From assembly GCA_004321885.1 (NCBI GenBank), contig SCQK01000014.1, positions 32,001 to 96,000 on the forward strand: 64,000 nucleotides of DNA. Reading direction: 5' to 3'. The position numbers were made by a program, and so were the translations under genes. This DNA comes from Patescibacteria group bacterium. Its GTDB lineage: Bacteria > Patescibacteriota > Patescibacteriia > Magasanikbacterales > GWA2-37-8. Positions 1,173 to 64,000 of this stretch are shown here, one piece after another (position 1 is the first letter of the stretch; every line of letters starts with the position of its first letter). The notes beneath the pieces were generated by a model, which was given only the letters and a program-made list of their open reading frames with translations, had not been told where the DNA came from and made no database searches.

Positions 1173-3869
1173 ATGAAAGAACTTCCAAAGGCCTACGAGC
1201 CGCGAAAATACGAGGATAAGATATATGAACGTTGGGAAAAGAGCGGGTTGTTCAACCCCGATGTTTGTGTGGAAAAAGGCGTTGCCGATAAGAAGGCGAA
1301 GCCGTTTTCCATTGTCCTGCCTCCGCCCAACGTGACCGGCACCTTGCATTTGGGCCAGGCCTTGATGCTGTCGGTGCAGGATTTGCTGGTTCGTTATCAC
1401 CGCATGAAGAGCGACAAGACCTTGTGGGTGCCGGGCACTGACCACGCGGCAATTGCCACGCAGACCAAAGTGGAGAAATTGCTGATTCAGCAGGGGGTGA
1501 AAGACCCGCGCGCTGAATTGGGCCGGGAAAAATTTTTGAAAGAAGTAAACAAATTCGCGCAGGAATCGCACGATATCATCGTGAACCAGTGCCGCAAAAT
1601 GGGCGCGTCCTTGGATTGGACGCGTGAGGCCTTTACTTTGGACGAGCAAAGAAATCTGGCCGTGCGCACGATGTTCAAGATGATGTACGACGACGGCCTT
1701 ATTTACCGCGGCCATCGCATTGTAAACTGGTGCCCGCGTTGTCATTCCACTCTGGCCGACGACGAGGTGGAGTACAAAGCCCAGGCCGGCAAACTTTACA
1801 CTTTTAGATACGCCGATGATTTTCCTTTTGCCATTTCCACCACCAGGCCCGAAACCAAGCTGGGCGATACGGCCGTGGCCGTAAACCCGAACGACGAGCG
1901 CTATAAAAAATATATCGGCAAAGTTTTTGAAGTAAAAAAATTCGCGGGCGGACCGGATTTGAAAATAAAAGTGATTGCCAGCGAAGACGTGGACACAGAC
2001 TTTGGCACGGGCGCGCTTGGCGTTACTCCGGCGCACAGCTTTGCTGACTATGAAATGGCGCAAAAAAATAAATTGCTGGTGATTAAAGTGATTGATGAAG
2101 ACGGGAAAATTACCAAAGAGGCCGGCAAGCATTATAAGGGGTTCACGGTTTTGGAAGCGCGGGCGCGGGTGCTGGAAAACCTGCGCGAATTGAATTTGCT
2201 GGAAAAAGAGGAAGATGTTTCCAATAATTTATCTGTTTGCTATCGCTGTGAAAGTCCGGTGGAGCCTATTCCCTCCAAGCAGTGGTTCATAGACGTGAAC
2301 AAGAAATTCAGAATCAAGAATGAAGAATTAAGAATAAAGGGATTGAAAGTGAACAGCGAAGTGACGTTGAAACAATTGATGTCGGTCGCGGTGAAAAATG
2401 GACAGATAGAAATTATTCCGGACCGCTTCAACAAAACTTATTTTCATTGGATAGACAATTTGCGCGACTGGTGTATCAGCCGGCAAATTTGGTACGGCCA
2501 CCAGATTCCGGTGTGGTACAAAGGCGAGGAAATTTTCGTGGACGTAGAGGCGCCAAAGGGCGATGGCTGGGCTCAAGACCCAGATACGCTGGATACCTGG
2601 TTCAGCTCTGGCCTGTGGACTTTTTCCACACTTGGCTGGCCCGACAAGACCGATGACTTGAAAAATTTTCATCCCACCTCGGTGATGGAAACCGGTTATG
2701 ATATTTTATTTTTTTGGGTGGCGCGCATGATTTTGATGACGACTTACGCGTTGGGCGATATTCCTTTTGAAAAGGTTTATCTGCACGGTTTGGTGCGCGA
2801 CGAGCAGGGGCGCAAAATGAGCAAATCGTTGGGTAACGCGATTGACCCGCTGGACATGATAAGAGAGTATGGAGCCGACGCCGTCCGCCTGTCGTTGCTT
2901 ATTGGCACCAGCCCGGGCAATGATATGAAGCTGTCGGTGGAAAAAATCGCTGGTTTTCGCAATTTCACCAACAAGCTGTGGAATATCTGCCGGTTTATGC
3001 TGATGAACATCGGCAAGGATGTCATTCTGACCCCGACTCAGTCGGGGGAAGAATCCCTTTCAAAAACCCTGGCCGACAAGTGGATTTTGAATCGGTTGCG
3101 CGCAGTAATTAATATTGTCACAGAAAATATTGAAAAGTTTAATTTTTCTTACGCCGGAGAGCGTCTGCGCGATTTCACCTGGGGCGATTTGGCGGATTGG
3201 TATTTGGAGGTCGCAAAAATAGAAGGTGATAAGTCGGAAATCTTAAATTACATTTTAAGCGTGATTTTGAGACTTTGGCACCCGTTCATGCCCTTTGTCA
3301 CCGAACAAATTTGGCAGGATATTTATGGGAAAGAAAAAATGTTGATGGTGGAAAAATGGCCGGAAAAAATTAAATCGTTAGTTGATTCTTCACTCATCGG
3401 GATGACTGATTTTGATTATGCGAGAAATATAATTTTTCAACTTCGCTCATTGCGAGCTGAATATAAAATTGAACCGACAAAAAAAATAAATGTCGCAATC
3501 AGCGCGGGCGCTAAAGAACAAATTTTGAAGGATAACAAGGAGATGATCGTTAAAATGGCTAAAATTGATAATTTGATAATTGGAAAAGAGGTAAAAAAAC
3601 CGATAAACGCAGTTACATTTTTTGAACCGCCATGTGTTACTGTTTTTATGGACCTGGCTGGTTCGGTGGATTTGGTCAAGGAAAAAGAACGGCTGAAAAA
3701 AGAAATTGAGCAAACGGAAAAATATGTGGAAATACAAAAGAAAAAATTAGCCAACAAAGAATTCGTGGCAAACGCCCCCGCAGAAATCGTGGAAAAAGAA
3801 CAGCAGAAACTTTCTGAATGTGAAGCGAAGCTGGGGAAATTAAAAAATCAATTGAAGAGTCTAAAATGA
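1173..3869 (+). CDS. valS: Valyl-tRNA synthetase
   Basis: 898 aa. HIGH-type motif PPPNVTGTLHLGQA, KMSKS (GRKMSKSLGN), C-terminal coiled coil typical of ValRS. Confidence 0.95.
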   Translation: MKELPKAYEPRKYEDKIYERWEKSGLFNPDVCVEKGVADKKAKPFSIVLPPPNVTGTLHLGQALMLSVQDLLVRYHRMKSDKTLWVPGTDHAAIATQTKVEKLLIQQGVKDPRAELGREKFLKEVNKFAQESHDIIVNQCRKMGASLDWTREAFTLDEQRNLAVRTMFKMMYDDGLIYRGHRIVNWCPRCHSTLADDEVEYKAQAGKLYTFRYADDFPFAISTTRPETKLGDTAVAVNPNDERYKKYIGKVFEVKKFAGGPDLKIKVIASEDVDTDFGTGALGVTPAHSFADYEMAQKNKLLVIKVIDEDGKITKEAGKHYKGFTVLEARARVLENLRELNLLEKEEDVSNNLSVCYRCESPVEPIPSKQWFIDVNKKFRIKNEELRIKGLKVNSEVTLKQLMSVAVKNGQIEIIPDRFNKTYFHWIDNLRDWCISRQIWYGHQIPVWYKGEEIFVDVEAPKGDGWAQDPDTLDTWFSSGLWTFSTLGWPDKTDDLKNFHPTSVMETGYDILFFWVARMILMTTYALGDIPFEKVYLHGLVRDEQGRKMSKSLGNAIDPLDMIREYGADAVRLSLLIGTSPGNDMKLSVEKIAGFRNFTNKLWNICRFMLMNIGKDVILTPTQSGEESLSKTLADKWILNRLRAVINIVTENIEKFNFSYAGERLRDFTWGDLADWYLEVAKIEGDKSEILNYILSVILRLWHPFMPFVTEQIWQDIYGKEKMLMVEKWPEKIKSLVDSSLIGMTDFDYARNIIFQLRSLRAEYKIEPTKKINVAISAGAKEQILKDNKEMIVKMAKIDNLIIGKEVKKPINAVTFFEPPCVTVFMDLAGSVDLVKEKERLKKEIEQTEKYVEIQKKKLANKEFVANAPAEIVEKEQQKLSECEAKLGKLKNQLKSLK
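3031..3047. repeat. Perfect palindrome CCCCGAC-TCA-GTCGGGG inside valS
   Basis: Read directly: ccccgactcagtcgggg, encoding ...TPTQSGEE.... Same CCCCGAC/GTCGGGG arms as the 38-nt element and the pseudo-tRNA hairpin. Confidence 0.6.
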
Positions 3870-31239: not shown

Positions 31240-32328
31240 ATGCCCAAAGTCGCTATAATATATTTGTCATTCCACTCCGAGCAGTATTTGGATGACGCGG
31301 TCTCGGCCTTGAAAAAAATGACATATCCCAGGGACCGGGCGGCCTTTGTGGTGGTTGACAACCCGCACCCGGAGTATGGTTCGTCCGTGCGCGCAGCGGA
31401 AGAGACCCTGTTGCCTTTGTCCGAGAAAGAAATCCCGCGTGTGGTGATTTTGCCGCAGGAAAAAAATCTTGGGTTCGCCGGGGGCAATAACGTTGGCATG
31501 CAGTGGGCGCTTGACAATGGTTTTGATTTTGTCTTTTTGCACAACGACGACGGTTTTATGGCTTCTGACTGTTTGGAGCGGTTGGTGGAAGTCATGGAAA
31601 AAGACAAAACAATCGGGGCGGCGCAGTCCTTGCTGTTGATGCATCCGGAAACCGAATTGATAAACAGCGACGGCAACTCTTTTCATTATTTGGGTTTTGG
31701 TTTTTGCAATCATTTGCGGGTTCCCAAAAGCGAGATTAAAATTGACTCAATCAAAGATATTGGTTACGCCAGCGGGGCCGCGGTTTTGATGAGGGCGGAT
31801 TTATTAAAACAACATGGCCTGTGGGATGATGATTTTTTCTTGTATCACGAGGACTTGGAATATTCCTTGCGCTTGAAACAACGGGGGTACCGCGTGGTTC
31901 TGGCGCCCGCGTCGGTTTTTTATCACAAATATAACTTCGGGCGAAACACCAGCAAGTATTATTACATGGAGCGCAATCGTTATGGCGTGATGCTGATGTA
32001 CATGAAAATCGCCACTTTGGTCTTGCTTCTGCCAATCGCCCTGGCCGTGGAATTGGGAATACTTTTGCTGGCCGCCAAAAATGGCTGGCTGAAAGAAAAA
32101 ATCAGCGCTTACGGATATTGGCTCAAAGCAACCAGTTGGAAATTATGGCTGAAAAAACGCGTGGCTCGGCAGGGCGCGCGCAAGGTCAAAGACAAAGATA
32201 TTCTGCGCTCGGCCGAGAGTCGTCTGATTTTCGCGGAAAGAAGTTTCCAAAGTCCGCTCCTAAAATATTTTGGCAATCCGATTATGGCCGCCTGCTGGTT
32301 TGTGGCGAAGAAGATAATTTTTTGGTAA
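31240..32328 (+). CDS. Family 2 glycosyltransferase with C-terminal TM region
   Basis: VAIIYLSFHSEQYL...VVVDNPHPEYG...KNLGFAGGNNVGM...HNDDGF. C-terminal hydrophobic helices. Confidence 0.7.
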   Translation: MPKVAIIYLSFHSEQYLDDAVSALKKMTYPRDRAAFVVVDNPHPEYGSSVRAAEETLLPLSEKEIPRVVILPQEKNLGFAGGNNVGMQWALDNGFDFVFLHNDDGFMASDCLERLVEVMEKDKTIGAAQSLLLMHPETELINSDGNSFHYLGFGFCNHLRVPKSEIKIDSIKDIGYASGAAVLMRADLLKQHGLWDDDFFLYHEDLEYSLRLKQRGYRVVLAPASVFYHKYNFGRNTSKYYYMERNRYGVMLMYMKIATLVLLLPIALAVELGILLLAAKNGWLKEKISAYGYWLKATSWKLWLKKRVARQGARKVKDKDILRSAESRLIFAERSFQSPLLKYFGNPIMAACWFVAKKIIFW

Positions 32329-36361: not shown

Positions 36362-39300
36362 ATGCGAAGAGCGAAAATAATATTTTTCATTATTATCTTC
36401 GCCGCGTTCAGCTCGGCCGCCTTTGGCGGTCGTGTTTTGTCTTTTGACACCAATATCGCTCATCCAAACATCGCGACATTGGCCGTAAAGCTTTACAATG
36501 AGAATTTTGACCCGGATTTAACCGAGGAACAGACGCGTTGGATAGAGCAGGGAGCTGTTGCCGAGGACACGCCCAACCGGTGGTACAACCATTTTTACGA
36601 CCCGGTCTACAATCGTGGCATCTGGTTTGGCAAACAACATTTATCAGCCAAAAATTGGGCTGTTAATCCCCGAGCTCAAACTGGTTTTGCCTTGGGCGAC
36701 AAGAGCTGGCAAAGAGCGCTTGATGATTTTAGAAATAGTGATGAGGAAAAGGCATACAGGGCCCTGGGGCATATTATTCACCTTATTTCAGATATGGCTG
36801 TGCCGGCGCATACCCGAGACGACATTCATCCGCTCGGCGATTCGTTTGAGCAATTTGTGAAAAAGAATTGGGCCAGCGCGACAAAGAATTTGCGCTATGG
36901 AATGATATCTGTATCTGATTTAGATTCAGCTTTTGATTCTGTGGCCAATTATTCAAACAATAATTTTTATAGTGATGATACGATTGAAAATAAAAAATAT
37001 CAGAATCCAGATTTGAATCACATTATACTAAAATATGTGGAAGTTGGAAATGGCATTTCTTATAAATTTTTAGTCAATTCAGTTGGTGGTCAAGAAAGTT
37101 TGCTTTGTAGAACTAATAGCAATAAGAATTGGTTAGACACTCTTGGGGATGACATTCTAAAAGAGTGCAAAGTTGGTGATGATCTCGTTCTCACCGACTA
37201 CTCCCGCCACCTGCTCCCAAAAGCCATCGGTTACAGCGCCGGAATTATTAAACTATTTTTTGACCAAGCCAAGAGTGATAAGGAAGTGGGTAATTTGCCC
37301 GGCAAAAGAACTAGTTTTTCCGGATACCTTGATCAATTTCTTGGTTTCGCTGTCTCGGGAGCGGAAAAATTATACAGCGTGATTAAGATAGCGTTAGGAA
37401 TAGAGCCGGCTTATTCCGAGGGAAGCGCGGAGATTGAGGAACAAGCGCCCTCCCTCCCGCCAGAGGCAGGCAAGCATCAAGGGGAGGGAACGACCACAAC
37501 CACACCAACCACGCCAACCACGACCAACGTCGCGCAGACCACGACCAAACCCAAACCCCCCGCCACCATAAAAAAAGCGGTCGGGAGAAAGACCGGGGCG
37601 TCTGGCGCGCCGGTCGCTGGCTCCATAGTCCCCGACTTAGTCGGGGCTGTGGAGCCCAATGCCAGCACCCTGGCTCCACAGCCTCCTGCGGGGGACAATG
37701 GAGCCAGCCAAGAAGGAACGACGACCACGCCTGTGTATTTTCCTCCATCGTCAAGAGACGGGGGAGCGTATCCGCCAAATACCCCTCCCCTAATAGGGGA
37801 GGGAGATGTTGTGCCTACCACCACCCCGACACCCACCACCACCCCGTCTTCTACAACTACCCCTTCGTCCACCACCACCCCAACCCCCTCCCCCACCACC
37901 ACTCCCACCAGCACTCCGGCTCTGCCACCGCCACCGCTCGTCATCAGCGAAATCGCCTGGGCCGGCACCTCGGCCGCCAGGTCCAACAACGAATGGCTGG
38001 AGCTTTACAACAACTCCACCTCGTCAATAGATTTCACCTCGGGCTGGAAAATTTTTGTTTCCGGCGCCCAGCTCAACATCTCCAATTTTGTTAATCCAGT
38101 CATTTTACCAAAAACATATTACCTGTTGGAACGCACCGACGATTTTACGGTCAAAGAAATTTCCGCGGACGCGATTTACACCGGCGCCCTAAACAATAAT
38201 GGCGCGAAAGTGGAACTCGTCAATCCAAGCGGAGAAACCATAGACACCGTGGACGGCTCCTCGGGCTGGTTCGCGGGTCAGGCCAGTCCCAGTTACGCTA
38301 GTATGGAAAGAAAAGACCTCACCGCCAGCGGTACGAGTCCCGGCAACTGGCAATCCAGCATTGGCGGGCGCGCCACTGGCACGAGCGATGAAATGCCGCC
38401 CAAGCCCATCATGGGCTCGCCCAAACGCCCCAATTTCGGCTACATTGTGCTTACTGGTACCCAAGCCCAAACCACCCGCACACTCACCACAGACAACAGT
38501 CCCTATCTTTTGTGGAGTTACACTATTCCAGCCGGCTTTACATTAAACATCAATCCCGGCGTGGTGATAAAAAGTTACACCCAAAGCGCGGTGATGATTG
38601 TAGATGGGACGCTGAATGTTGGCGGGGGAGACAATAAAGTCATCTTCACCTCGGGCAAAGACCAGTCTTTCACCAGTCCCGACCTCAACCTGATAGACAT
38701 CAATTATCTTTGGACAACTCCCGGGCCGGCTGAAAAAGATTGGCAGGGGCTGTGGTTCAAGCCCGGCTCCCAGGGCAACATCGCCAATACAGAAATCAGA
38801 TACGCGGGCAAAGAGTTTTACCCCACCGGAGGCCCGGCCATGTCCCAGGGCATTCGCGCCGAATCCGGGCTTTCCCTATCAAACTCCACCATCGCCAACT
38901 CCGGCTCCGCGCTTATCTTTCTCCAAAATGCTTCTTCCACCATTACTAACACCAACTTCACCGGCTCCGATCTGGCCATAGAAGCCAACAATTCCCGGCT
39001 CACAATCAACGGCGCGCACTTCACGGGCTTTGGCTCACAGGGCCCTTTGCAAATCAAAGACGCCTGGCCCGAATTTTCCAATCTCACCTACACCACCGGC
39101 ACTGTGCCTTATGCCCGTTTGTACATGGTAAAAACCAGCGCCCCGCAGACCACGGCCAAAAAAGAAATCAATTACCTCTTTGACAACATTGAAGTGGCGT
39201 CTTCCACCACCTTAAACATTGAACCCGGCGCCAACGTCAAAATGACCAACAGCTCCATACTCACGGTCAATGGCGTTCTCAATGCCAATGGCACGCCCAC

Positions 39301-39805
39301 CGACCCCGTCAGTATCGGTCAATTTACCCCGGCCATTCCCAATACTTTATGGGGTTCACTCTACTTCACGGGCAATACTTCCACCATCAAATACACCAAC
39401 ATCTCTGGCGGCGGGCACATACCATCGGGCAGTGGCGTATTCGGCGCCATCACGGCGCAAAATGCCGAAGTCATCATTGAAAACAGCGCCATAAAAAACA
39501 CGGAACAGCCGGGCAATGCCATACAATCCGCCAACGCAGTCATTAGAATAAAGAACAGCGAGATTTCCAATGACACCAAGACGCGCGAAGACCCGCCCGC
39601 GGGCCCGTCGCCTTACAATATCGGGGTCAGCATCGGCGGCGGCAGTCTTCACCTGGACAACACCCTGTTCAAAAATCTCAACATCGGCTTGCAGGGAACA
39701 TACATATCTGGTAGTTTGCCACAGGTGGAGCTGGTCAACATGAATACATCCACTGCGTATTTTCAGAATGTGGGGCGGGTGATGAATCCGTTGGTATGGT
39801 TTTAG
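36362..39805 (+). CDS. Giant secreted surface protein: N-terminal Zn-phospholipase-C/S1-P1-like domain, P/T-rich linkers, lamin-tail domain, parallel beta-helix repeats
   Basis: Signal peptide MRRAKIIFFIIIFAAFSSAAFG. TTTTPTTPTTT and TPTPTTTPSSTTTPSSTTTPTPSPTTTPTSTP linkers. LTD motif EWLELYNNSTSSIDF...NNNGAKVELVNPSGETIDTVD. NxTIxNSGS beta-helix repeats. Confidence 0.6.
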   Translation: MRRAKIIFFIIIFAAFSSAAFGGRVLSFDTNIAHPNIATLAVKLYNENFDPDLTEEQTRWIEQGAVAEDTPNRWYNHFYDPVYNRGIWFGKQHLSAKNWAVNPRAQTGFALGDKSWQRALDDFRNSDEEKAYRALGHIIHLISDMAVPAHTRDDIHPLGDSFEQFVKKNWASATKNLRYGMISVSDLDSAFDSVANYSNNNFYSDDTIENKKYQNPDLNHIILKYVEVGNGISYKFLVNSVGGQESLLCRTNSNKNWLDTLGDDILKECKVGDDLVLTDYSRHLLPKAIGYSAGIIKLFFDQAKSDKEVGNLPGKRTSFSGYLDQFLGFAVSGAEKLYSVIKIALGIEPAYSEGSAEIEEQAPSLPPEAGKHQGEGTTTTTPTTPTTTNVAQTTTKPKPPATIKKAVGRKTGASGAPVAGSIVPDLVGAVEPNASTLAPQPPAGDNGASQEGTTTTPVYFPPSSRDGGAYPPNTPPLIGEGDVVPTTTPTPTTTPSSTTTPSSTTTPTPSPTTTPTSTPALPPPPLVISEIAWAGTSAARSNNEWLELYNNSTSSIDFTSGWKIFVSGAQLNISNFVNPVILPKTYYLLERTDDFTVKEISADAIYTGALNNNGAKVELVNPSGETIDTVDGSSGWFAGQASPSYASMERKDLTASGTSPGNWQSSIGGRATGTSDEMPPKPIMGSPKRPNFGYIVLTGTQAQTTRTLTTDNSPYLLWSYTIPAGFTLNINPGVVIKSYTQSAVMIVDGTLNVGGGDNKVIFTSGKDQSFTSPDLNLIDINYLWTTPGPAEKDWQGLWFKPGSQGNIANTEIRYAGKEFYPTGGPAMSQGIRAESGLSLSNSTIANSGSALIFLQNASSTITNTNFTGSDLAIEANNSRLTINGAHFTGFGSQGPLQIKDAWPEFSNLTYTTGTVPYARLYMVKTSAPQTTAKKEINYLFDNIEVASSTTLNIEPGANVKMTNSSILTVNGVLNANGTPTDPVSIGQFTPAIPNTLWGSLYFTGNTSTIKYTNISGGGHIPSGSGVFGAITAQNAEVIIENSAIKNTEQPGNAIQSANAVIRIKNSEISNDTKTREDPPAGPSPYNIGVSIGGGSLHLDNTLFKNLNIGLQGTYISGSLPQVELVNMNTSTAYFQNVGRVMNPLVWF
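37619..37656. mobile_element. 38-nt palindromic element GGCTCCATAGTCCCCGACTTAGTCGGGGCTGTGGAGCC inserted in frame (encodes [13 protein letters not shown])
   Basis: 100% identical, in inverse orientation, to 62514-62551 inside guaA. Both are read in the same frame by the host genes. Confidence 0.7.
37783..37803. repeat. In-frame palindrome CCCTCCCC-TAATA-GGGGAGGG
   Basis: Perfect 8-bp arms. Encodes PPLIGEG in the surface protein. Confidence 0.55.
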
Positions 39806-41298
39806 ATAAAATTTTCAAAAAAATTCAGGCAGTGGCCCAAAAAAATAAGACCCCGTGCTATGTGGTGGGCGGTTTTGTGCGCGATATGCTGATGGACAAG
39901 GCGCGGGAAAAAGACGTGGATTTTGTGATTTTGGGAAGCGGGCTGGGGTTTGCCAAAAAATTTGACCAGGCCATGAAGCAAGAGGGGAGTTTAATTGAGT
40001 TTCCGGATTTTGACACGGCGCGGTATATTTTGACCCCTTCTAAATCCTCCCCTTATCAAGGGGAGGATAACGAGCAAATCGTGCTGGAGTTCGCGGGCGC
40101 GCGAGGGGAAGAATATGACGAGAAAAGCCGCAAGCCCAGGGTAAAGCCGGCCACGTTAAAACAAGATTTAGAGCGCCGCGATTTTACCATCAACGCGATG
40201 GCCATGAGTATTGACGACTACCCCTCCGGCCGTCCGCCACAGGGCGGACGGCCGCCTCCCCTTATAAAGGGGAGGCTGATAGACCCGTTCGGCGGGCAGG
40301 AAGATTTGAAAAATAAAATTCTGCGCACGCCGCTTGACCCGGACAAAATATTTTCCGAGGACCCTTTGCGCATGATGCGCGCCGCGCGCTTCGCGGGCCA
40401 GCTTGGTTTTGCCATAGACACTTTTGCTTTGCAGGCCATTTACCGCAACCGCGAGCGCCTGAAAATCGTTTCGGCCGAGCGCGTGCAAGAGGAGCTGTTA
40501 AAAATGCTTTCCACGCCCGAGCCATCTATTTGTCTGGCTCTGCTTTTTCAAACCCACCTGTTGGATTTGGTGTTGCCAGAGGTGGCCAAGCTGGACGGGG
40601 TGGAAGAAATTTACGGCCACCAGCACAAAAACAATTTATCACACACCTTTAAAGTGGTGGACAATATCGCCGAGCGCTCGCCCAAAGTCATGTTGCGCTT
40701 TGCCGGCCTGCTGCACGACATCGGCAAGGCGTCCACTAAAAAATTTATTCCGCGTCAGGGCTGGACTTTTTACCAGCACGAGCACATGGGCAAAAAAATG
40801 GTTTATCAAATCGGCAAGCGCCTGCGCTTGTCCACGGACCACACGGATTATTTGGCCAAAATGGTGCGCTGGCACCAGCAGCCGATAAGCCTGATGGACA
40901 AGGGCATCACGGATTCGGCGGTGCGTCGCCTGATTGTGAATTTGGGTGATGAGTTGGAAGATTTGTTGATACTTGGCCGGAGCGACATTACCACGGGCAA
41001 TCCGTTGAAAAAAGAAAAACGCCTGGGCAATTACGACCGACTGGAAAAGCGCATTGCCGAGGTTTTGGAAAAAGATAAATTGCGCGCCTTTCAGTCGCCG
41101 GTGCGCGGGGAAGAAATCATGAAAGAGTGCGGCTTGAAAGCCGGGCCGACAGTGGGAAAAATAAAAGACGCGATAGAGGAGGCCATTCTTGACGGAATCA
41201 TACCAAATGAGTATGATAAAGCGAGGGAGTACTTGTTTGAAATTAAGAATAAGTATCTGGAAAAAGCCCAGGATTGGGAAAGAGTGAAAAATATATGA
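39796..41298 (+). CDS. cca: CCA-adding tRNA nucleotidyltransferase with HD domain
   Basis: VVGGFVRDMLM...DVDFV (PolyA_pol head), C-terminal HD motif FAGLLHDIGK. Contains two adjacent palindromic inserts. Confidence 0.8.
   Translation: MVLDKIFKKIQAVAQKNKTPCYVVGGFVRDMLMDKAREKDVDFVILGSGLGFAKKFDQAMKQEGSLIEFPDFDTARYILTPSKSSPYQGEDNEQIVLEFAGARGEEYDEKSRKPRVKPATLKQDLERRDFTINAMAMSIDDYPSGRPPQGGRPPPLIKGRLIDPFGGQEDLKNKILRTPLDPDKIFSEDPLRMMRAARFAGQLGFAIDTFALQAIYRNRERLKIVSAERVQEELLKMLSTPEPSICLALLFQTHLLDLVLPEVAKLDGVEEIYGHQHKNNLSHTFKVVDNIAERSPKVMLRFAGLLHDIGKASTKKFIPRQGWTFYQHEHMGKKMVYQIGKRLRLSTDHTDYLAKMVRWHQQPISLMDKGITDSAVRRLIVNLGDELEDLLILGRSDITTGNPLKKEKRLGNYDRLEKRIAEVLEKDKLRAFQSPVRGEEIMKECGLKAGPTVGKIKDAIEEAILDGIIPNEYDKAREYLFEIKNKYLEKAQDWERVKNI
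40046..40068. repeat. In-frame palindrome TCCTCCCC-TTATCAA-GGGGAGGA in cca
   Basis: Perfect 8-bp arms, encodes SSPYQGED. Confidence 0.6.
40227..40276. repeat. Tandem in-frame palindromes CGGCCGTCCGCC-acag-GGCGGACGGCCG + GCCTCCCC-TTATAAA-GGGGAGGC in cca
   Basis: 12-bp and 8-bp perfect stems sharing one G. Encode SGRPPQGGRPPPLIKGRL between conserved Cca blocks. Confidence 0.6.
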
Positions 41299-51176: not shown

Positions 51177-52256
51177 ATGAAAATAATGTTTTCCGGCGGG
51201 GGGACTTTGGGGCCGGTGACGCCGCTTTTGGCGGTGCACGAGATTTATCGCCGCCGCAATCCGGGGGCGAAATTTGTGTGGGTGGGCACAAAGCGCGGCC
51301 CAGAGAAAAAAATTTTGGAAAAATATAACATAGTTTTTTACGCGGTCACATCGTGCAAGTGGCGCCGCTATTTTTCTTTGCGCAACATCATAGACGCGAT
51401 TAAATTCGGCGTTGCTTTTTTCCAGTGTTTGATTTTGCTGTGGATAGAAACGCCCGACCTGCTTGTTTCCGCCGGCGGGTTCGTGAGCGTGCCTTTGCAT
51501 TGGGCCGGCGCCCTGCTGGGCATACCGGCCTGGGTTCATCAGCAAGACCCGAGCGTGGGATTGGCCAACAAATTGAACGCGCGTTTTGCCAAGAAAATTA
51601 CCACGGCCCTGCGCGACACCGCGCGATTTTTTCCCGAGAAAAAAACCGAATGGCTGGGCAACCCGGTGCGCGACCTGACAGTGGGCGATGCGCAAGCGGC
51701 GCGCGGGCGTTTGGGTTTGCCGCTGACCGGCCCGGTTATTTTTGCCTTGGGCGGCGGCACCGGGGCCTCAAAATTAAACGAGCTGGTGTTGCAATCCTTG
51801 GCTTCTCTGCCCAAGGATTGGCAGGTCATTCATCTGCTCGGCGACAGACCCATGGAAATGGCCGAGCGGGCCGCGCAGACATTTACCAATTACCATCCGC
51901 GCCAATTTTTTACTCACGAGATGAAAGACGCCTACGCGGCGGCTGATGTGGTTATCGCGCGCGCCGGTTTTGGCACCATCAGCGAGCTGGCGGCCCTGGG
52001 CAAGGCCGCGGTCATAATTCCTATGCCCGGCTCGCATCAGGAAGAAAACGCGAAATTGCTTTCAGCCAACAAAGCGGCCATCGTGCTCCGCGAAGAAACA
52101 GCTAACGGAATGAAGCTGGCGCATATCGTGGATGAGATTGCGCGCTATCCGGAATTCAAAGATTATCTCGGCAACCGCTTGCGCTCTATTTTACCGCCGG
52201 CTAGGCCCGAGAGGGTCGTGGAAATTATTGAAGAACTTACAGAATCAAAGAAATAA
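51177..52256 (+). CDS. murG: UDP-GlcNAc:undecaprenyl-PP-MurNAc-pentapeptide GlcNAc transferase
   Basis: MKIMFSGGGTLGPVTPLLAV N-terminal G-loop, C-terminal GT-B domain, 359 aa. Confidence 0.85.
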   Translation: MKIMFSGGGTLGPVTPLLAVHEIYRRRNPGAKFVWVGTKRGPEKKILEKYNIVFYAVTSCKWRRYFSLRNIIDAIKFGVAFFQCLILLWIETPDLLVSAGGFVSVPLHWAGALLGIPAWVHQQDPSVGLANKLNARFAKKITTALRDTARFFPEKKTEWLGNPVRDLTVGDAQAARGRLGLPLTGPVIFALGGGTGASKLNELVLQSLASLPKDWQVIHLLGDRPMEMAERAAQTFTNYHPRQFFTHEMKDAYAAADVVIARAGFGTISELAALGKAAVIIPMPGSHQEENAKLLSANKAAIVLREETANGMKLAHIVDEIARYPEFKDYLGNRLRSILPPARPERVVEIIEELTESKK

Positions 52257-52299
52257 AAATTTGAACGGTGAATCGCTCGGAGAATTTGGGATTCAATGT

Positions 52300-53631
52300 T
52301 CAAATTTTTATTTCTTTGATTTTATTTTGTAAAGTTTGTTTTGATTTTACTCGCACCCGCACAAATTCCGGCGTATATCCCGCGAAGTAGCCGGATTTTT
52401 TTTGTTCAAACAGTACTGGGCGGGTTTTGCCGGTGAATTTGGCCGCGAATTTTTTGGCCTCGGCTTTGGAAATTTTGAGCAGTTTTTTTACGCGTTCGGT
52501 TTTGATTTTGTCCTGCACTTGGTTTGGCATTTTGGCCGCGGCAGTGCCAGGGCGCGGAGAAAAAGGGAAAACGTGTATTTTGGCAAAGCCCCCGCCAAAG
52601 GCGGGTCCGTCTTGGGCGGACATTTTTTTTACAAACGCGCAGGTCTCGGTGAATTCTTTTTCGGTCTCGCCCGGGAAGCCGACGATAATGTCGGTGGTAA
52701 AAGAAAACAGGGGATTGGCCTGGCGCAGTTTTTGAACAATTCCAAGATATTGTTTCGCGTTATATCCGCGCCGCATCCGTTTGAGCATTGTGTCCGAGCC
52801 CGATTGCAAGGACAAATGCCAATGCGGCATCAATCTGTTTTGTCCCCCCTTTTTAAGGGGGGAATAAAAGGGGGGTAAGAATAATTTTATTAATTTTTCC
52901 GAAATCAGCCGCGGGTCCAGCGAACCGAGCCGGATGCGCTCTATTTTTGTTTCTCGTAAAATTTTTTTCAGCAGTTCGGCCAAGTCTCCCCCACTGCCAG
53001 AGGGGGGGACGAAGGGGGGGTGGGAGCTGTCTTTGTATTGGCAAATATTTACTCCGGTCAGTACCGCTTCTTTATAGCCGTCTTTTTCCGCTTCTTTGAT
53101 TTTTTTTATCACCGCCTCGGATGGCACACTTCGCGTTCGGCCGCGGAAAGATGGAATAATACAATAGGCGCAGTTAAAATTACAGCCGGTTTGGATTTTG
53201 ATGAGAGTGCGTGTTCTATCATTGCGTAGCCGAGCGGTCGGATGTGTTCGTAGCGCCTTATGCCGCCGCAGCGGCATGGCCGAGGCCTCGCGGCCGAGGG
53301 AAGCGAGAACACATCCGACCGCTCCTCTGCGAGCTTCGCAATGGCTCACAACTTCCTCATTCCCTCTCGCCACAAAATCAATCTCGGGCAAATCCTTGTT
53401 TTCCAGACAGCCAACCGCGATTACGTACGCCCCGCGCCGTTTGGCCCGCCGAATCATCTCGCGCGTGGTCTGACTGGCGTCCACGGTCACTCCGCAGGCG
53501 CGCACCACGGCTACGTCTTCGTGCGCGCCAAAAAGCACGACAGAAAAACCTCGCTGTACGAGGTCTTTTTTCAGTTCTTCTGTCTCGGCTTGATTCAATT
53601 TGCACCCCAGGGTGTGGAATGAAATTTTCAC
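52300..53631 (-). CDS. Radical-SAM methylthiotransferase, MiaB/RimO/MtaB family (MtaB-like) carrying palindromic inserts
   Basis: N-terminal MTTase ISFHTLGCKLNQAETE, radical SAM IQTGCNFNCAYCIIP, C-terminal TRAM. 443 aa, inflated by inserts. Confidence 0.75.
   Translation of the reverse strand: MKISFHTLGCKLNQAETEELKKDLVQRGFSVVLFGAHEDVAVVRACGVTVDASQTTREMIRRAKRRGAYVIAVGCLENKDLPEIDFVARGNEEVVSHCEARRGAVGCVLASLGREASAMPLRRHKALRTHPTARLRNDRTRTLIKIQTGCNFNCAYCIIPSFRGRTRSVPSEAVIKKIKEAEKDGYKEAVLTGVNICQYKDSSHPPFVPPSGSGGDLAELLKKILRETKIERIRLGSLDPRLISEKLIKLFLPPFYSPLKKGGQNRLMPHWHLSLQSGSDTMLKRMRRGYNAKQYLGIVQKLRQANPLFSFTTDIIVGFPGETEKEFTETCAFVKKMSAQDGPAFGGGFAKIHVFPFSPRPGTAAAKMPNQVQDKIKTERVKKLLKISKAEAKKFAAKFTGKTRPVLFEQKKSGYFAGYTPEFVRVRVKSKQTLQNKIKEIKI
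52843..52863. repeat. In-frame palindrome TCCCCCC-TTTTTAA-GGGGGGA in the MtaB-like gene
   Basis: Encodes (minus strand) FYSPLKKGG. A second imperfect one at about 52985-53010 encodes HPPFVPPSGSGG. Confidence 0.5.
53220..53344. mobile_element. About 125-bp highly structured palindromic insertion with 18-bp perfect terminal inverted repeats inside the MtaB-like coding sequence
   Basis: GAGCGGTCGGATGTGTTC (53232-53249) and its exact reverse complement (53307-53324). Outer CATTGCG/CGCAATG. Internal ATGCCGC-cgca-GCGGCAT. GC-rich. Translated as a 40-aa insert between the MTTase and radical-SAM domains. Confidence 0.55.
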
Positions 53632-54298: not shown

Positions 54299-54473
54299 TG
54301 GCCTCGCCTCTCGCTCGCTTCCGCTCGCTCGGGCTGGCCACCGCCTCGCGGTTTGGCTCGCCCATAAGCTCGCCAAACATCGCTCCGGCGTTCGAATCCC
54401 ACCGCGAGCAAAACTATTTGCTCGCTGCCGGTTCCCAAAATTCAAATCCGCCTAATTGCGGATTTTAATTTTG

Positions 54474-54546
54474 TGACCCGGCTGGGATTCGAACCCAGGA
54501 CCTCTTCCTTAAAAGGGAATTGCTCTACCAACTGAGCTACCGGGCC
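54474..54546 (-). tRNA. tRNA-Lys(UUU)
   Basis: Minus-strand GGCCCGG-TA-GCTC-AGTTGGTA-GAGC-A-ATTCC-CTTTTAA-GGAAG-AGGTC-CTGGG-TTCGAAT-CCCAG-CCGGGTC-A. Anticodon TTT. Confidence 0.85.
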
Positions 54547-58595: not shown

Positions 58596-58787
58596 TGGAG
58601 CGGGATACGAGAATCGAACTCGCATCTCTTGCTTGCCCCCACACCAATAATATTGAGCGGACGATGGGAATCGAACCCACGCCTCAACCTTGGGAAGGTC
58701 GCATACTACCATTATACTACGCCCGCGTATCGCACTATTGGTGTGGGGGCTTGGGAAGCAAGCATACTGCCACTGTACTAATCCCGC
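58596..58787 (-). tRNA. Split tRNA-Gly(CCC) gene: 5' half 58787-58751 and 3' half 58632-58596 (CCA encoded), interrupted at position 37/38 by a 118-nt intervening sequence
   Basis: Halves join to GCGGGAT-TA-GTAC-AGTGGCA-GTAT-G-CTTGC-TTCCCAA-GCAAG-AGAT-GCGAG-TTCGATT-CTCGT-ATCCCGC-T-CCA with perfect acceptor and anticodon stems. Intervening sequence is bounded by 15-bp inverted repeats GCCCCCACACCAATA/TATTGGTGTGGGGGC. Confidence 0.55.
58656..58726 (-). tRNA. tRNA-Gly(CCC), intact, nested inside the split tRNA-Gly intervening sequence
   Basis: GCGGGCG-TA-GTAT-AATGGTA-GTAT-G-CGACC-TTCCCAA-GGTTG-AGGC-GTGGG-TTCGATT-CCCAT-CGTCCGC-T. Confidence 0.8.
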
Positions 58788-58792
58788 GATTG

Positions 58793-58865
58793 AGCCGACC
58801 ATGGGACTCGGACCCATAACCTACGGTTTACGATACCGTTGCTCTACCAGTTGAGCTAGGTCGGC
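58793..58865 (-). tRNA. tRNA-Thr(CGU)
   Basis: GCCGACC-TA-GCTC-AACTGGTA-GAGC-A-ACGGT-ATCGTAA-ACCGT-AGGTT-ATGGG-TCCGAGT-CCCAT-GGTCGGC-T. Confidence 0.85.
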
Positions 58866-61972: not shown

Positions 61973-63802
61973 TTACTCCCACTCAATAGTTCCGGGTGGT
62001 TTGTTGGTGAGGTCGTAGAAGATGAAGTCCACGGCGTTTAGAGCGTGGATTTTTTTGATGATTTTTTTCAGAGTGGGCGAGGGTATGACGCCAAACGAGA
62101 CGGTCATCGCTTCTTCTGATTCCACGGGTCGCAGGACAATTGATTCGCCGTGCTTGTGCCCAAACGGCACGAGCACCGTGGGCATTTGCCAGATTTTTTG
62201 GCATTGCTTGTCGGTCAAAATGGCGCTGTCGGCGATGTCATCTATTTTTCGCAAAAGGTCCAGCCGTTTTTTGGTAAGATACGCTTTTTTCAGCGTGGCT
62301 TTTGGCAATGATTTTTTGTCGCCGGAAACAAGCAGTAGAACGCGGTTGATGTCTTTGTGGGCGTTGGTGATTTTAGGAGAAAGGGATTGATAATACCCCC
62401 ACCCGGCCTCCCCCTTATAAAGGGGGAGGGGACCTGTGATAACGGCGGGGTGGGCGTAGGAGCGCTCGTCGCCTTGCACGCCCACGGATTTGATGGGGAG
62501 ACGCCAAATTGTTGGCTCCACAGCCCCGACTAAGTCGGGGACTATGGAGCCAGCGTCGTTTGATCCTTCCGAGCACAGACAGCGAATGGCCAGGCCCGGG
62601 CCCGGAAAGGGATGGCGGTTTATCAATTTTTGCGGCAGACCGAGCTTAAGGCCGATGGCGCGCACTTCGTCTTTGTACAAATCCTTAATCGGCTCTATGA
62701 TTTTTCCTTCGGCGATCATTTGTTTTATCCGCGGTACGCGATTGTGATGCGTTTTTATGACGTCGGCGTTTTTGGTGCCGCCCGATTCAATAGTGTCGGG
62801 ATAAATGGTGCCTTGGCCGACCAACCATTTGTCTCCGGTCAATTTTTTTCTACCAGACCCGCCTTTGGCGGGTTCGGCCATTACTTTGTCCACAATATCC
62901 AAAAACAAATCGCCGATGATTTTTCTTTTTTGTTCCGGATCAGACACGCCTTTGAGCGCGGATAAAAATTCTTTTTCGGCGTTATACACCCGCAAGTTGT
63001 CTCCCAGTCGCTTCAGAGCCGCTATGATTTTTTTTGTCTCATCCAACCGCATCAGGCCGCTGTCAATGTGCAAGCCGAAAACCCTTTTTTCGCCAAGCAC
63101 TTTTCGCAATAGGGCGAAACAAACCGTGGAATCAACGCCGCCGGAGACGAGCAAGAAAACATTTTTACCGCCCGCTTCCTTTTTTATATTTTTTTCAATT
63201 TGATCCAGCATTGTCTCTGTCGTCCAGTTTTTTTCCGCCCCGCAAATATTTAAAATAAAATTGGCCAGAATTTTTTTTCCTTCTTTCGTGTGATTTACTT
63301 CCGGATGAAACTGAAAGCCGAAGAACTTTTTTGATAAATTTTGCATGGCCGCCACCGAACGGTTGCCGGTTGAAGCGATTGGCGTAAAACCGAACGGCAG
63401 TTTGTCCACGTGATCGCCGTGGCTCATCCAGACAACGGTATTTTTACTTACGCCCGAAAAAATCGGCGAGGCGCTGACGGATAATTTCGCCAAACCGTAT
63501 TCACGCGCCTTGCCCGATTCAACGCGCCCGCCAAAAAAATCTGCCATCAACTGATGCCCGTAGCACAGACCCAAAATCGGCGCGCTGAGCGTAAAAATTT
63601 TTTTATCAAAAGGCAAACGCGCGTCGCGCACCAGCGAACGCGGACCGCCGGAAAGGATGATTCCACACGCGTTTTTCAATCGTTCGGCTTTGACGTTATT
63701 CGGGTAAATACGTGAAATAACGCCCAGTTCGCGCACGCGACGGGCGATGAGATGGGTGTACTGGGAACCGAAATCAAGGATGGCGATTTCACTTTTTGGC
63801 AT
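61973..63802 (-). CDS. guaA: GMP synthase (glutamine-hydrolysing), with in-frame palindromic inserts
   Basis: GATase [22 protein letters not shown]...GLCYGHQLM...HGDHV. ATP-PPase [14 protein letters not shown]-terminal dimerisation domain. ATG 63802. Confidence 0.85.
62407..62429. repeat. In-frame palindrome CCTCCCCC-TTATAAA-GGGGGAGG in guaA
   Basis: Encodes (minus strand) [11 protein letters not shown]. Confidence 0.55.
62514..62551. mobile_element. Second copy of the 38-nt palindromic element (encodes [13 protein letters not shown] in guaA)
   Basis: Reverse complement is identical (38/38) to 37619-37656. The flanking CGCTGG is also shared. Confidence 0.7.
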
Positions 63803-63857
63803 ACTTGCAATAAAATCGGCTATACTATACCATACAACCAATTTACAGCCAATATTT

Positions 63858-64000
63858 ATGCGTGAAACACTTACATTTGATGATGTTTTGCTGGTGCCGC
63901 AGAAGTCCGACGTTCTGCCCAAAGACGCCCATCTGACCAGTTTTTTAACACACGAAATCAAATTGAATTTGCCGTTTTTGAGCGCGCCCATGGACACGGT
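63858..64000 (+). CDS. guaB: IMP dehydrogenase, 5' end (partial, runs off window)
   Basis: [48 protein letters not shown] matches the GuaB N-terminus. Divergent from guaA. Confidence 0.75.

Follow-up and report, generated by a model that had tools for sequence, protein, structure and literature searches.

How did a long, GC-rich and highly structured palindrome come to lie in frame inside a gene for a tRNA-modifying enzyme? The question is raised by mtaB, a minus-strand gene in a 64,000-nucleotide (nt) stretch of DNA, hereafter the window (positions 32,001 to 96,000 of contig SCQK01000014.1, assembly GCA_004321885.1), from a Patescibacteria group bacterium. The original prediction, made from the letters of this DNA, was that an element resembling a MITE (miniature inverted-repeat transposable element) had inserted there. 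We found a palindrome of 128 nt in the linker between the UPF0004 and radical-SAM domains of the protein (Table 1), and we consider it to be probably a decayed and translated insertion of a palindromic repeat, belonging to a family that ends in TGTCAT, in a permissive part of MtaB. It is another case of the palindromic repeats already known inside protein genes, as in Rickettsia, and not a new kind of system.

The palindrome and its host protein

As predicted, the segment contains two exact 18-bp inverted repeats; they are 57 nt apart. A scan of the window for GAGCGGTCGGATGTGTTC with up to three mismatches returned these two sites and no other, and two matches were reached in 0 of 100 shuffles. 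The two smaller palindromes foreseen between the arms, ATGCCGC-cgca-GCGGCAT and GGCC-tcgc-GGCC, are also present. Around the arms, CATTGCG (53220-53226) pairs with CGCAATG (53337-53343, one nucleotide before the predicted start at 53338) in an outer stem of 7 bp, or of about 10 bp if two transitions are allowed. Read in the coding orientation, the element runs GCCATTGCGA...ACGCAATGAT, and the mini-hairpin core sequence GCGAAGC stands next to its left terminus (53333-53339, GCTTCGC on the plus strand). When the 93-nt core is taken out, a 35-nt hairpin is left, CATTGCG-A-AGC-(9-nt loop)-GCT-A-CGCAATG, and the core occupies its loop.

The strong structure expected of the segment was borne out by folding. 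Its predicted free energy is -78.7 kcal/mol on the minus strand (z -5.7) and -79.4 kcal/mol on the plus strand (z -5.2), none of 200 shuffles was as stable, and in a sliding scan no other 125-nt segment of the 64 kb was as stable (-75.2; mean -32.2, standard deviation 9.3). Its GC content is indeed far above that of its surroundings (0.664 at 53220-53344 against 0.49 in the window), within the top 0.7% of 125-nt segments; the rest of mtaB is at 0.49, the adjoining 5' part of the gene already at 0.55. Rfam gave no match at the gathering threshold in the window and none at E <= 1 on 53120-53440, and neither a promoter nor a terminator was found at the site of the element, which is DNA without a gene or signal of its own. 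No direct repeat that could be a target-site duplication was seen at the outer (GTGA ... AGAA) or at the inner (AGAG ... GGCT) boundary.

The host protein combines UPF0004 (PF00919, residues 2-83) with three cluster cysteines and Radical_SAM (PF04055, residues 144-333) with the CxxxCxxC motif, as is characteristic of MtaB, the tRNA t6A37 methylthiotransferase, and its homologues carry this name at NCBI and JGI. The cluster cysteines C10, C46, C75, C150, C154 and C157 are intact and invariant in the homologue alignment. The nearest database relatives are MtaB proteins of Patescibacteria and Candidatus Magasanikbacteria with 60-65% identity and a modal length of about 398 aa. The element is in frame and free of stops over 126 nt (53218-53343), which would be read as the 42 residues H97-D138. 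An in-frame insert of about 40 residues between the two domains had been predicted, and this was confirmed except for its trailing RTRT, which is conserved native sequence.

The prediction had also pointed to two short hairpins in the same gene and called it a hotspot. Both hairpins are present, together with a further one, so that MtaB has four lineage-specific segments in excess of its shortest relatives, all of them hairpin-forming as DNA, and orthologues have inserts of their own, different ones, at three or four corresponding positions. An alignment-based AlphaFold model of the protein (mean predicted local distance difference test, pLDDT, 84.8; predicted template-modelling score, pTM, 0.83) superposes on structures of MtaB, MiaB and RimO with TM-scores of 0.75-0.81 (0.81 for MtaB 9a6d_A). 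Its sole stretches of low confidence (118-135, 207-213, 257-261 and about 341-350) are the four inserts, which the model thus presents as low-confidence loops on an otherwise intact fold.

Orthologous linkers and the TGTCAT-ended family

We measured the linker between two conserved motifs, EIDF and RTRxxIKIQ. Without an element it is 28-35 aa long (mode 31-32), unconserved and unrelated to the element; with an element it is 38-67 aa long in about 30 homologues, and the window has 52 aa. Hairpins are missing altogether from the linker in about half of the close orthologues. Element-free homologues thus exist, among them orthologues from Magasanikbacteria, as the prediction had supposed, but they have a non-homologous linker of 28-35 aa at this place, which indicates a replacement and not a clean insertion of 40 residues. 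The native variable part, of about 20 residues, is gone, for a net gain of about 20 aa; the element extends right up to the RTR codons, which are conserved, and supplies all of the variable linker sequence. Among members of a narrow clade that have about 90% identity in the flanks, one locus (L170) has the native linker and another (L171) has a family arm instead, with no duplication visible at the junctions when the two are compared; this swap also indicates that the element replaces the linker rather than merely adding to it.

Many orthologues have palindromes of their own in the linker, ending in TGTCATTGCGA...TCGCAATGACA or in covarying variants. Six such loci (L001-L006) were compared as DNA, each with a different palindrome there. 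The ends are GTCATTGCGA...TCGC(A/G)ATGAC in L001, L002 and L005 and GTCATYCTGA...TCAGGATGAC in L003 and L006, and L004 has two right arms. The left ends lie 40 nt past the EIDF codons in the window and in L001, and 48, 51, 51 and 54 nt past them in the others. The window and L001 are alike in nucleotide and frame (..SH/CEARRG against ..CH/CEERRK), and the other offsets reflect either separate events or shifted boundaries. The linker and loops of one essential enzyme have thus been colonised repeatedly and independently by hairpin repeats, with the native linker replaced in at least one clade. The words that recur in the long linkers (VIARSGATKQS, CHCEERR, ...APRNDK, ILRFAQDDK, VILSAAKDL) are different reading frames of one DNA palindrome. 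For annotation this means that VIARSEATKQS, ...APRNDK, CHCEER... or ILRFAQDDK in proteins of the Candidate Phyla Radiation (CPR) are translated repeat DNA and not conserved motifs; such translated repeats inflate apparent protein novelty and break assemblies.

An artefact of assembly or amplification, either an inverted chimera or the chimeric contig join that had been considered for the GC anomaly, is almost certainly not the origin of the element. Amplification chimeras are known to yield palindromes, and assemblers struggle at this spot, as one contig breaks inside the linker element. A join is nevertheless ruled out by the frame, preserved without a stop across 126 nt, by the catalytic cysteines and by synteny: both flanks come from one MtaB orthologue, the gene order murG-mtaB-tRNA-Lys-translin-mur ligase is kept on both sides in relatives, and analogous elements stand at the same place in independent assemblies from other samples. 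The broken contig (L169 1-971, protein P0108) begins exactly within the linker element (..DSRFRSNDE..), which suggests that such repeats break metagenome assemblies. We considered P0108 as a gene split by a frame-breaking copy and rejected this, as it merely starts at the contig end.

The basic unit of the family, of about 25 nt, can be written TGTC-ATTSY-GA-(GCGNAGC or a longer hairpin)-GA(A)-RSAAT-C, and a single arm forms a hairpin on its own, GTC-ATTGC-GA-(hairpin)-GAA-GCAAT-C. The outer boxes were defined as GTCATYSYGA ... TCRSRATGAC in inverted orientation, with the inner boxes GA(A)-RSAAT-C closing each unit of about 25 nt. The units, which come in subtypes of 25 and 26 nt, were also scanned for with a structure-aware pattern, against shuffled sequence. 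They occur solitary or as inverted pairs ending GTCATTGCGA...TCGCAATGAC, both within and between genes, and full palindromes as well as solitary arms are found in the intergenic DNA of relatives. For the taxonomic spread we drew on IMG/VR and on plasmids. A scan of IMG/VR for GTCATTGCGA-N6-36-GAAGCAATC gave at least 120 loci; among the matches listed, 183 arms were counted, most commonly 26 nt long (GTCATTGCGAGCGAAGCGAAGCAATC); 39 of them had an inverted partner 8-58 nt away, the others being solitary. The canonical palindrome is present, unannotated, on plasmids of the cyanobacteria Aulosira, Trichormus and Calothrix, of Methylosinus/Methylocystis and of Halomonas, and the family extends over several phyla. 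Our literature search found no paper that prints the DNA of the family or its peptide words.

The matched box pairs ATTGC/GCAAT, ATTCT/AGAAT and ATCCT/AGGAT were each found at 120 or more IMG/VR loci, against 28 and 18 loci for two non-complementary combinations, and bystander copies that had not been searched for showed other complementary stems (ATTCC, ATCCC, ATGTT, ATGCT). The excess of matched pairs and these additional stems support the structure of the unit by covariation. Its distal part is mostly GCGNAGC (modal cores GCGAAGC, GCGCAGC, GCGTAGC and GCGGAGC), with the covarying forms ACGAAGT, GTGAAAC, GCCGAAGGC and GGGCTTGCCC, and can grow to tens of nucleotides. GCGNAGC has the sequence of the "mini-hairpin DNA" of Hirao and colleagues, a motif of extraordinary stability in DNA form that is far less stable as RNA (PMC13037366). 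In the distal stems of the units listed, G.T and A.C mispairs are equally frequent (10 vs 10, among 340 Watson-Crick pairs); covariation without such an asymmetry points to a palindrome at the DNA level, with no sign of selection on a transcript of one strand. The arrangement of units at the IMG/VR loci, among the matches listed, depends on distance: those within 150 nt of each other tend to be inverted (56 vs 19), more distant ones tend to share the strand (30 vs 8 and 48 vs 23), a coherence that extends over kilobases. There was no preference between sense and antisense to naively called open reading frames, ORFs (121 vs 114). Strand-coherent examples among the loci L049-L381 are L064, L085 and L095, the last with four tandem 33-nt copies at 2695-2818. 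An RNA gene or ribozyme was rejected as an identity of the unit: ten loci rich in family units gave no Rfam match at the gathering threshold, and by eye the unit does not fit the hammerhead core.

These data also bear on whether the element is a functional nucleic-acid structure under selection, such as an mRNA hairpin (for ribosome pausing between the Fe-S domains or for message stability) or a single-stranded DNA signal (a priming or protein-binding site), which we regard as decidedly unlikely. Such a function would fit the most stable local fold of the window, the perfect stem, which implies that pairing is maintained or renewed, the recurrence of hairpins at the same interdomain position in many orthologues, and the same-strand coherence just described; moreover, GCGNAGC mini-hairpins are primase or promoter signals in some phages and plasmids (PMC13037366). 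It fits poorly with the half of the close orthologues that have no hairpin here, with inserts that vary in sequence, size, position (40-54 nt) and subfamily, with two strands that fold equally well and distal stems without G.T bias, with the blank Rfam result, and with the presence of the same families in unrelated genes and spacers.

Origin of the element and its place among known repeats

The 18-bp repeats, predicted to be terminal, form an internal stem, and the recognisable family ends are the outer GcCATTGCGA...aCGCAATGAt. Compared with GTCATTGCGA/TCGCAATGAC, these have one and two mismatches (9/10 and 8/10) and stand at the outer limits of the palindrome, and the left box has the same offset of 40 nt and the same frame as the canonical unit of L001. 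The prediction that a palindromic segment of extraneous origin lies in frame in the interdomain linker is thus supported, and the following history may be proposed. A small hairpin-forming repeat of the TGTCAT-ended family would have entered the linker DNA of mtaB and taken the place of the variable part of the native linker. The insert would have been retained because the frame was kept without a stop codon, and tolerated, presumably as a neutral change, because the linker is structurally permissive. The copy would then have decayed at its boxes, keeping only the outer ends of the inverted pair, and its interior would have been remodelled secondarily into the GC-rich, perfectly self-complementary palindrome of 93 nt, either by the nesting of a hairpin into the loop of the older one or by growth and homogenisation of a palindrome in situ, through template switching or hairpin-templated repair. 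The product would be a surface loop of 42 residues, largely disordered, now serving as the linker.

Several observations weigh against this history. Membership of the family is read from the two outer boxes and the position: the inner boxes GAAGCAATC / GATTGCTTC, or complementary variants of them, are absent inside the element, and the 8-mer CATTGCGA is expected about twice per window by chance (one further copy lies in a conserved part of valS). A perfect 18-bp stem is not predicted by the simple neutral decay of an old insertion, so that an additional process, concerted evolution or a recent secondary event, must be assumed; in L001, the positional counterpart, the complementarity of the arms has been lost. 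The site shared by the window and L001 could result from recurrent insertion into a permissive zone of 15 nt and not from common descent. As the closest homologue is only 60-65% identical, this lineage offers neither a target-site duplication nor an empty site. The translation of the segment is deduced from its open frame. Finally, the searches in the organism's own genome covered the 64-kb window, and the scan for transposases covered 10 of its approximately 56 other ORFs of at least 90 aa. The perfect stem in particular keeps three alternatives alive: selected structure, weighed above, origin de novo, and an element that is still mobile.

An origin of the palindrome de novo, by template switching or snap-back synthesis in a fast-evolving linker, with ends that resemble the family by coincidence, seems unlikely to us. 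It would explain the unique interior, the perfect arms and the smaller palindromes nested between them, in what is the least constrained part of MtaB, and the 8-mer match of the ends is by itself statistically uncompelling. Against it, the ends agree with family ends in inverted orientation, the left end falls at the exact nucleotide and frame of the canonical unit in L001, and bona fide members of the family occupy the same linker in at least five other orthologues. A GC content of 0.66 in a background of 0.49 also suggests a foreign or repeat-type composition.

The search for further copies bears on a third possibility, that of an active or recent non-autonomous transposon (a MITE, or a doublet of repetitive extragenic palindromic, REP, sequences forming a hairpin, REPIN) whose repeats of 18-25 bp are recognised by a transposase encoded elsewhere. 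Two inverted arms of about 18-25 nt, 57 nt apart and about 125 nt overall, do resemble REPIN doublets (PMC3116915) and MITEs, the arms are perfect as after recent copying, and the same window contains a genuine mini-element with terminal inverted repeats and a target-site duplication (58636-58749); the part of the genome examined is 64 kb. Against this, the 18-mer pair had no second copy in the window at up to three mismatches, and it gave 17 single matches in 185,579 species-representative genomes (596 Gb), where about 17 are expected by chance, and 25 single matches in JGI metagenomes, the genome and metagenome matches being at chance level and none of them sharing flanks with the element. 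The 93-nt inner palindrome is unique. No protein was found that shares three 5-mers with the peptide of the element, and an exhaustive HMMER search of the representative library gave one formally significant match (P0121), which is the sum of eight weak repeats, a single unit reaching 25.8 bits. The boundaries are without a target-site duplication, the 18-bp repeat is internal to the older family ends and not terminal, and the 10 ORFs scanned yielded no transposase. The MITE-like element originally proposed was therefore not borne out in the sense of a multicopy mobile unit, and we consider a transposon of this kind very unlikely. Intact family units, by the structure-aware scan, number one in the window (3021-3055) against 5-6 per 20 kb in L002 and L003.

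P0121 is a protein of 684 aa with eight tandem repeats of about 85 aa, each reading ..VVGCVRDAP..(19 aa)..SRTHPT..; the spacing from VGCV to RTHP equals that in the element peptide, with significance reached by summation only, and a word search found no relatives of the repeat unit. Two other candidate relatives of the peptide, P0122 and P0124, were rejected as low-complexity matches resembling tetratricopeptide repeats.

The decayed family insertion that we favour is closest in behaviour to the Rickettsia palindromic elements (RPEs), described by Ogata et al. (2000, 2002) according to the summary in PMC10969869. These are palindromes of about 100-150 bp lying in frame in housekeeping genes, and the window element, with 128 nt and about -79 kcal/mol, is likewise. 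RPEs yield an additional peptide where the protein fold allows it, as the window element apparently does, and both lie in a small gene-dense genome and show recurrent insertion in unrelated genes (here mtaB, valS, guaA and others). RPEs differ in forming multicopy families with a conserved peptide, whereas the window copy has a unique interior and family-type ends only; they also belong to another phylum, and the unit here is far smaller (about 25 nt), is also found solitary and extends across several phyla. The likeness is thus an analogy of behaviour and does not make the element a member of the RPE family. On this analogy, the lesson of Rickettsia, that selfish palindromes can serve as raw protein sequence in reduced genomes, may be extended to the CPR.

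With REPs, bacterial interspersed mosaic elements (BIMEs) and REPINs, which depend on REP-associated tyrosine transposases (RAYTs), the family shares short imperfect palindromes that stand singly or as inverted doublets making a long hairpin (PMC3116915, PMC3733652), and also the geometry of the doublets, a frequent position behind genes, structure at the DNA level and same-strand coherence. REPs are, however, extragenic by definition, of high copy number and 20-40 nt long, whereas the window element is intragenic and single; they have a GTAG or CGTC tag and a RAYT partner (PMC3733652), and TGTCAT, the end conserved in the family here, does not correspond to a REP tag. On the plus strand, GTAG is present at 53226 and 53250, beside arm 1, and no RAYT (Y1 transposase) was found among the 10 ORFs scanned. 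Bacterial MITEs are, like the element, small non-coding inverted-repeat DNA able to fuse in frame with host ORFs (PMC10969869); they differ in their target-site duplication, siblings and parent insertion sequence (IS), which were not found for the mtaB element in the searches above. Of the inverted repeats of the element, the 18-bp pair is internal, and the outermost pairing is the stem of 7 bp, or of about 10 bp with the two transitions. As it lacks the multiple copies and target duplication by which MITEs, REPs and RPEs are recognised, we filed the element under none of them.

The small dispersed repeats (SDRs) of heterocyst-forming cyanobacteria, which Elhai and colleagues reportedly described in 2008, are said to be units of about 21-27 nt lying inside other repeats and genes. 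By this description they are likewise very small dispersed units, and the canonical palindrome of our family occurs on plasmids of Aulosira, Trichormus and Calothrix. The "byp" elements of yeast mitochondrial genes, reportedly the subject of a study by Lang and colleagues in 2014, are said to break the frame and to be skipped by the ribosome. These mobile GC clusters and byps are, like the inserts here, GC-rich hairpins in coding genes of an AT-richer compact genome; since every insert examined here keeps the frame without a stop, bypassing need not be invoked. Finally, the mini-hairpin d(GCGNAGC) is identical in sequence to the modal family core, and GCGAAGC is present at the left end in the window, but mini-hairpins are a physico-chemical motif of phage and plasmid origins and promoters and not a repeat family (PMC13037366).

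The weight of these findings lies mainly in the family and in the genome-wide pattern, and less in the single degenerate copy of mtaB. A wider and more doubtful proposal, which we put forward only tentatively, is that the TGTCAT-ended unit of about 25 nt is an undescribed, very small mobile DNA distributed across phyla, with a GCGNAGC core and hairpin "cargo" in its distal loop, that would spread by targeting the hairpin loops of single-stranded DNA and routinely rewrite loops and linkers of essential proteins in gene-dense Patescibacteria. This proposal draws on the valS unit that contains the hairpin CCCCGACTNAGTCGGGG, on the mtaB copy with its 93-nt palindrome and on a tRNA-Gly element nested in an anticodon arm, the first and last of which are described below. 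If it is true, the mtaB element would be a snapshot of the growth of a hairpin within a hairpin, making new protein sequence. The covarying hairpin of about 25 nt, its GCGNAGC core, the nesting and the strand coherence offer handles for finding the enzyme that moves the family.

Feature coordinates and other repeats of the window

Table 1. Window coordinates of mtaB, of the palindrome in its linker and of the other hairpin inserts.
Feature	Position	Strand	Remarks
Host gene mtaB	52300..53631	-	443 aa; UPF0004 and radical-SAM domains
Whole palindromic element	53218..53345	-	128 nt; encodes MtaB H97-D138
Left terminus	53337..53345	-	GCCATTGCG in coding orientation
Arm 2, 18-bp perfect inverted repeat	53307..53324		exact reverse complement of arm 1
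Interior between arms	53250..53306		57 nt with two small hairpins
Inner hairpin	53284-53295		GGCC-tcgc-GGCC
Inner hairpin	53260-53277		ATGCCGC-cgca-GCGGCAT
Arm 1, 18-bp perfect inverted repeat	53232..53249		GAGCGGTCGGATGTGTTC on the plus strand
Right terminus	53218..53226	-	CGCAATGAT in coding orientation; 0 nt from conserved RTR codons
Second hairpin insert	52987..53028	-	SSHPPFVPPSGSGG, aa 202-215; C-run/G-run hairpin
Third hairpin insert	52837..52878	-	LPPFYSPLKKGGQN, aa 252-265; type CCCCCCTT...AAGGGGGG
Fourth hairpin insert	52591..52620	-	SAQDGPAFGG, aa 338-347

The window as a whole is rich in hairpins: it has 48 perfect ones of at least 9 bp against 8-17 in shuffles, a three- to six-fold excess, and 34 of the 48 lie inside ORFs. 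Besides mtaB, translated hairpins are found in valS, in guaA, in a gene for a CCA-adding-type enzyme and in a 1147-aa ORF, and two families of short hairpins have several copies each, all or nearly all of them within genes.

The valS gene (1173-3869, plus strand) has an intact solitary unit of the TGTCAT-ended family in frame at 3021-3055, GTCATTCTGA[CCCCGACTCAGTCGGGG]GAAGAATC, and a solitary right arm, also in frame, at 3384-3406 (GATTCTTCACTCATCGGGATGAC); compared with the ValRS structure of T. thermophilus (1GAX), they are loop expansions of +8 and +4 residues. The distal stem of the unit at 3021-3055 is the separately repeated hairpin CCCCGACTNAGTCGGGG, a nesting that parallels that of mtaB. 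This second family has three exact copies (3031-3047, 37630-37646 and 62524-62540; 0 in shuffles), all intragenic, in valS, the 1147-aa ORF and guaA, respectively. Those at 37618-37657 and 62515-62553 lie within a longer common palindrome, GGCTCCAyAGyCCCCGACTnAGTCGGGGrCTrTGGAGCC. Copies of a third family, CCTCCCCTT-nnn-AAGGGGAGG with close variants, were found at 6513, 36328, 40046 and 40255 (also at 37783, 52843 and 62407), almost all intragenic and translated as peptides of the type ..SPYQGE.. or ..PPLIKGR..; C-run/G-run inserts resembling this family are present in orthologues at the second and third hotspots of MtaB.

The guaA gene (61973-63997, minus strand) has at least two nested palindromes (62407-62429 and 62515-62553) and codes for a GMP synthase of 674 aa, about 150 aa above the usual length. 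Second and third in degree of structure within the window are 37560-37730 (in ORF 36362-39805, plus strand), with -91 kcal/mol over 171 nt and palindromes within palindromes that again parallel the nesting in mtaB, and 40030-40290 (in ORF 39796-41298, plus strand), with -109 kcal/mol over 261 nt; in both, the nested or adjacent palindromes are read through in frame.

An element of 114 nt (58636-58749) interrupts the native tRNA-Gly(CCC) gene (58597-58790, minus strand) within the 3' strand of the anticodon stem, and the rejoined halves of the gene are near-identical to the single copy in the relatives L002 and L003. The element ends in perfect 14-nt inverted repeats (CCCCCACACCAATA / TATTGGTGTGGGGG), is flanked by a target duplication of 4 nt, CTTG (58632-58635 and 58750-58753), and thus, unlike the mtaB element, bears the formal marks of transposition. 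Its interior is a second, complete and different tRNA-Gly(CCC) gene (58655-58726), so that it appears to replace the gene that it destroys. A search of the window, of the loci compared and of IMG/VR gave no further copy of its terminal repeats. The tRNA-Gly and tRNA-Thr genes (58597-58865) run in the direction opposite to their neighbours, a surA-like gene and ftsE, whereas in relatives (L170 4747-4942, L171 5362-5557, L006 2535-2693) they are co-oriented with the flanking genes; as their left-to-right order is unchanged, this is not a simple block inversion.

Two features lie close to mtaB. Between the convergent murG and mtaB genes there is an AT-rich inverted repeat at 52243-52321 (24 bp perfect; 32 nt, 94%), whose right arm overlaps the final mtaB codons and which looks like a shared bidirectional terminator. 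At about 54300-54440 (plus strand), beside tRNA-Lys (54473-54546, minus strand), a GC-rich segment includes a fragment resembling the 3' part of a tRNA, GGCGTTCGAATCCCACC, oriented towards the tRNA-Lys gene; neither ARAGORN nor Rfam called a tRNA on it, and a small terminator-like hairpin follows the fragment. Lastly, among the orthologue loci, L003 (13665-16355) has a DnaG primase of 896 aa, longer than its counterparts of about 600 aa in L002 and L006; with its faint Pfam matches to intein and LAGLIDADG domains, this primase may contain an intein.

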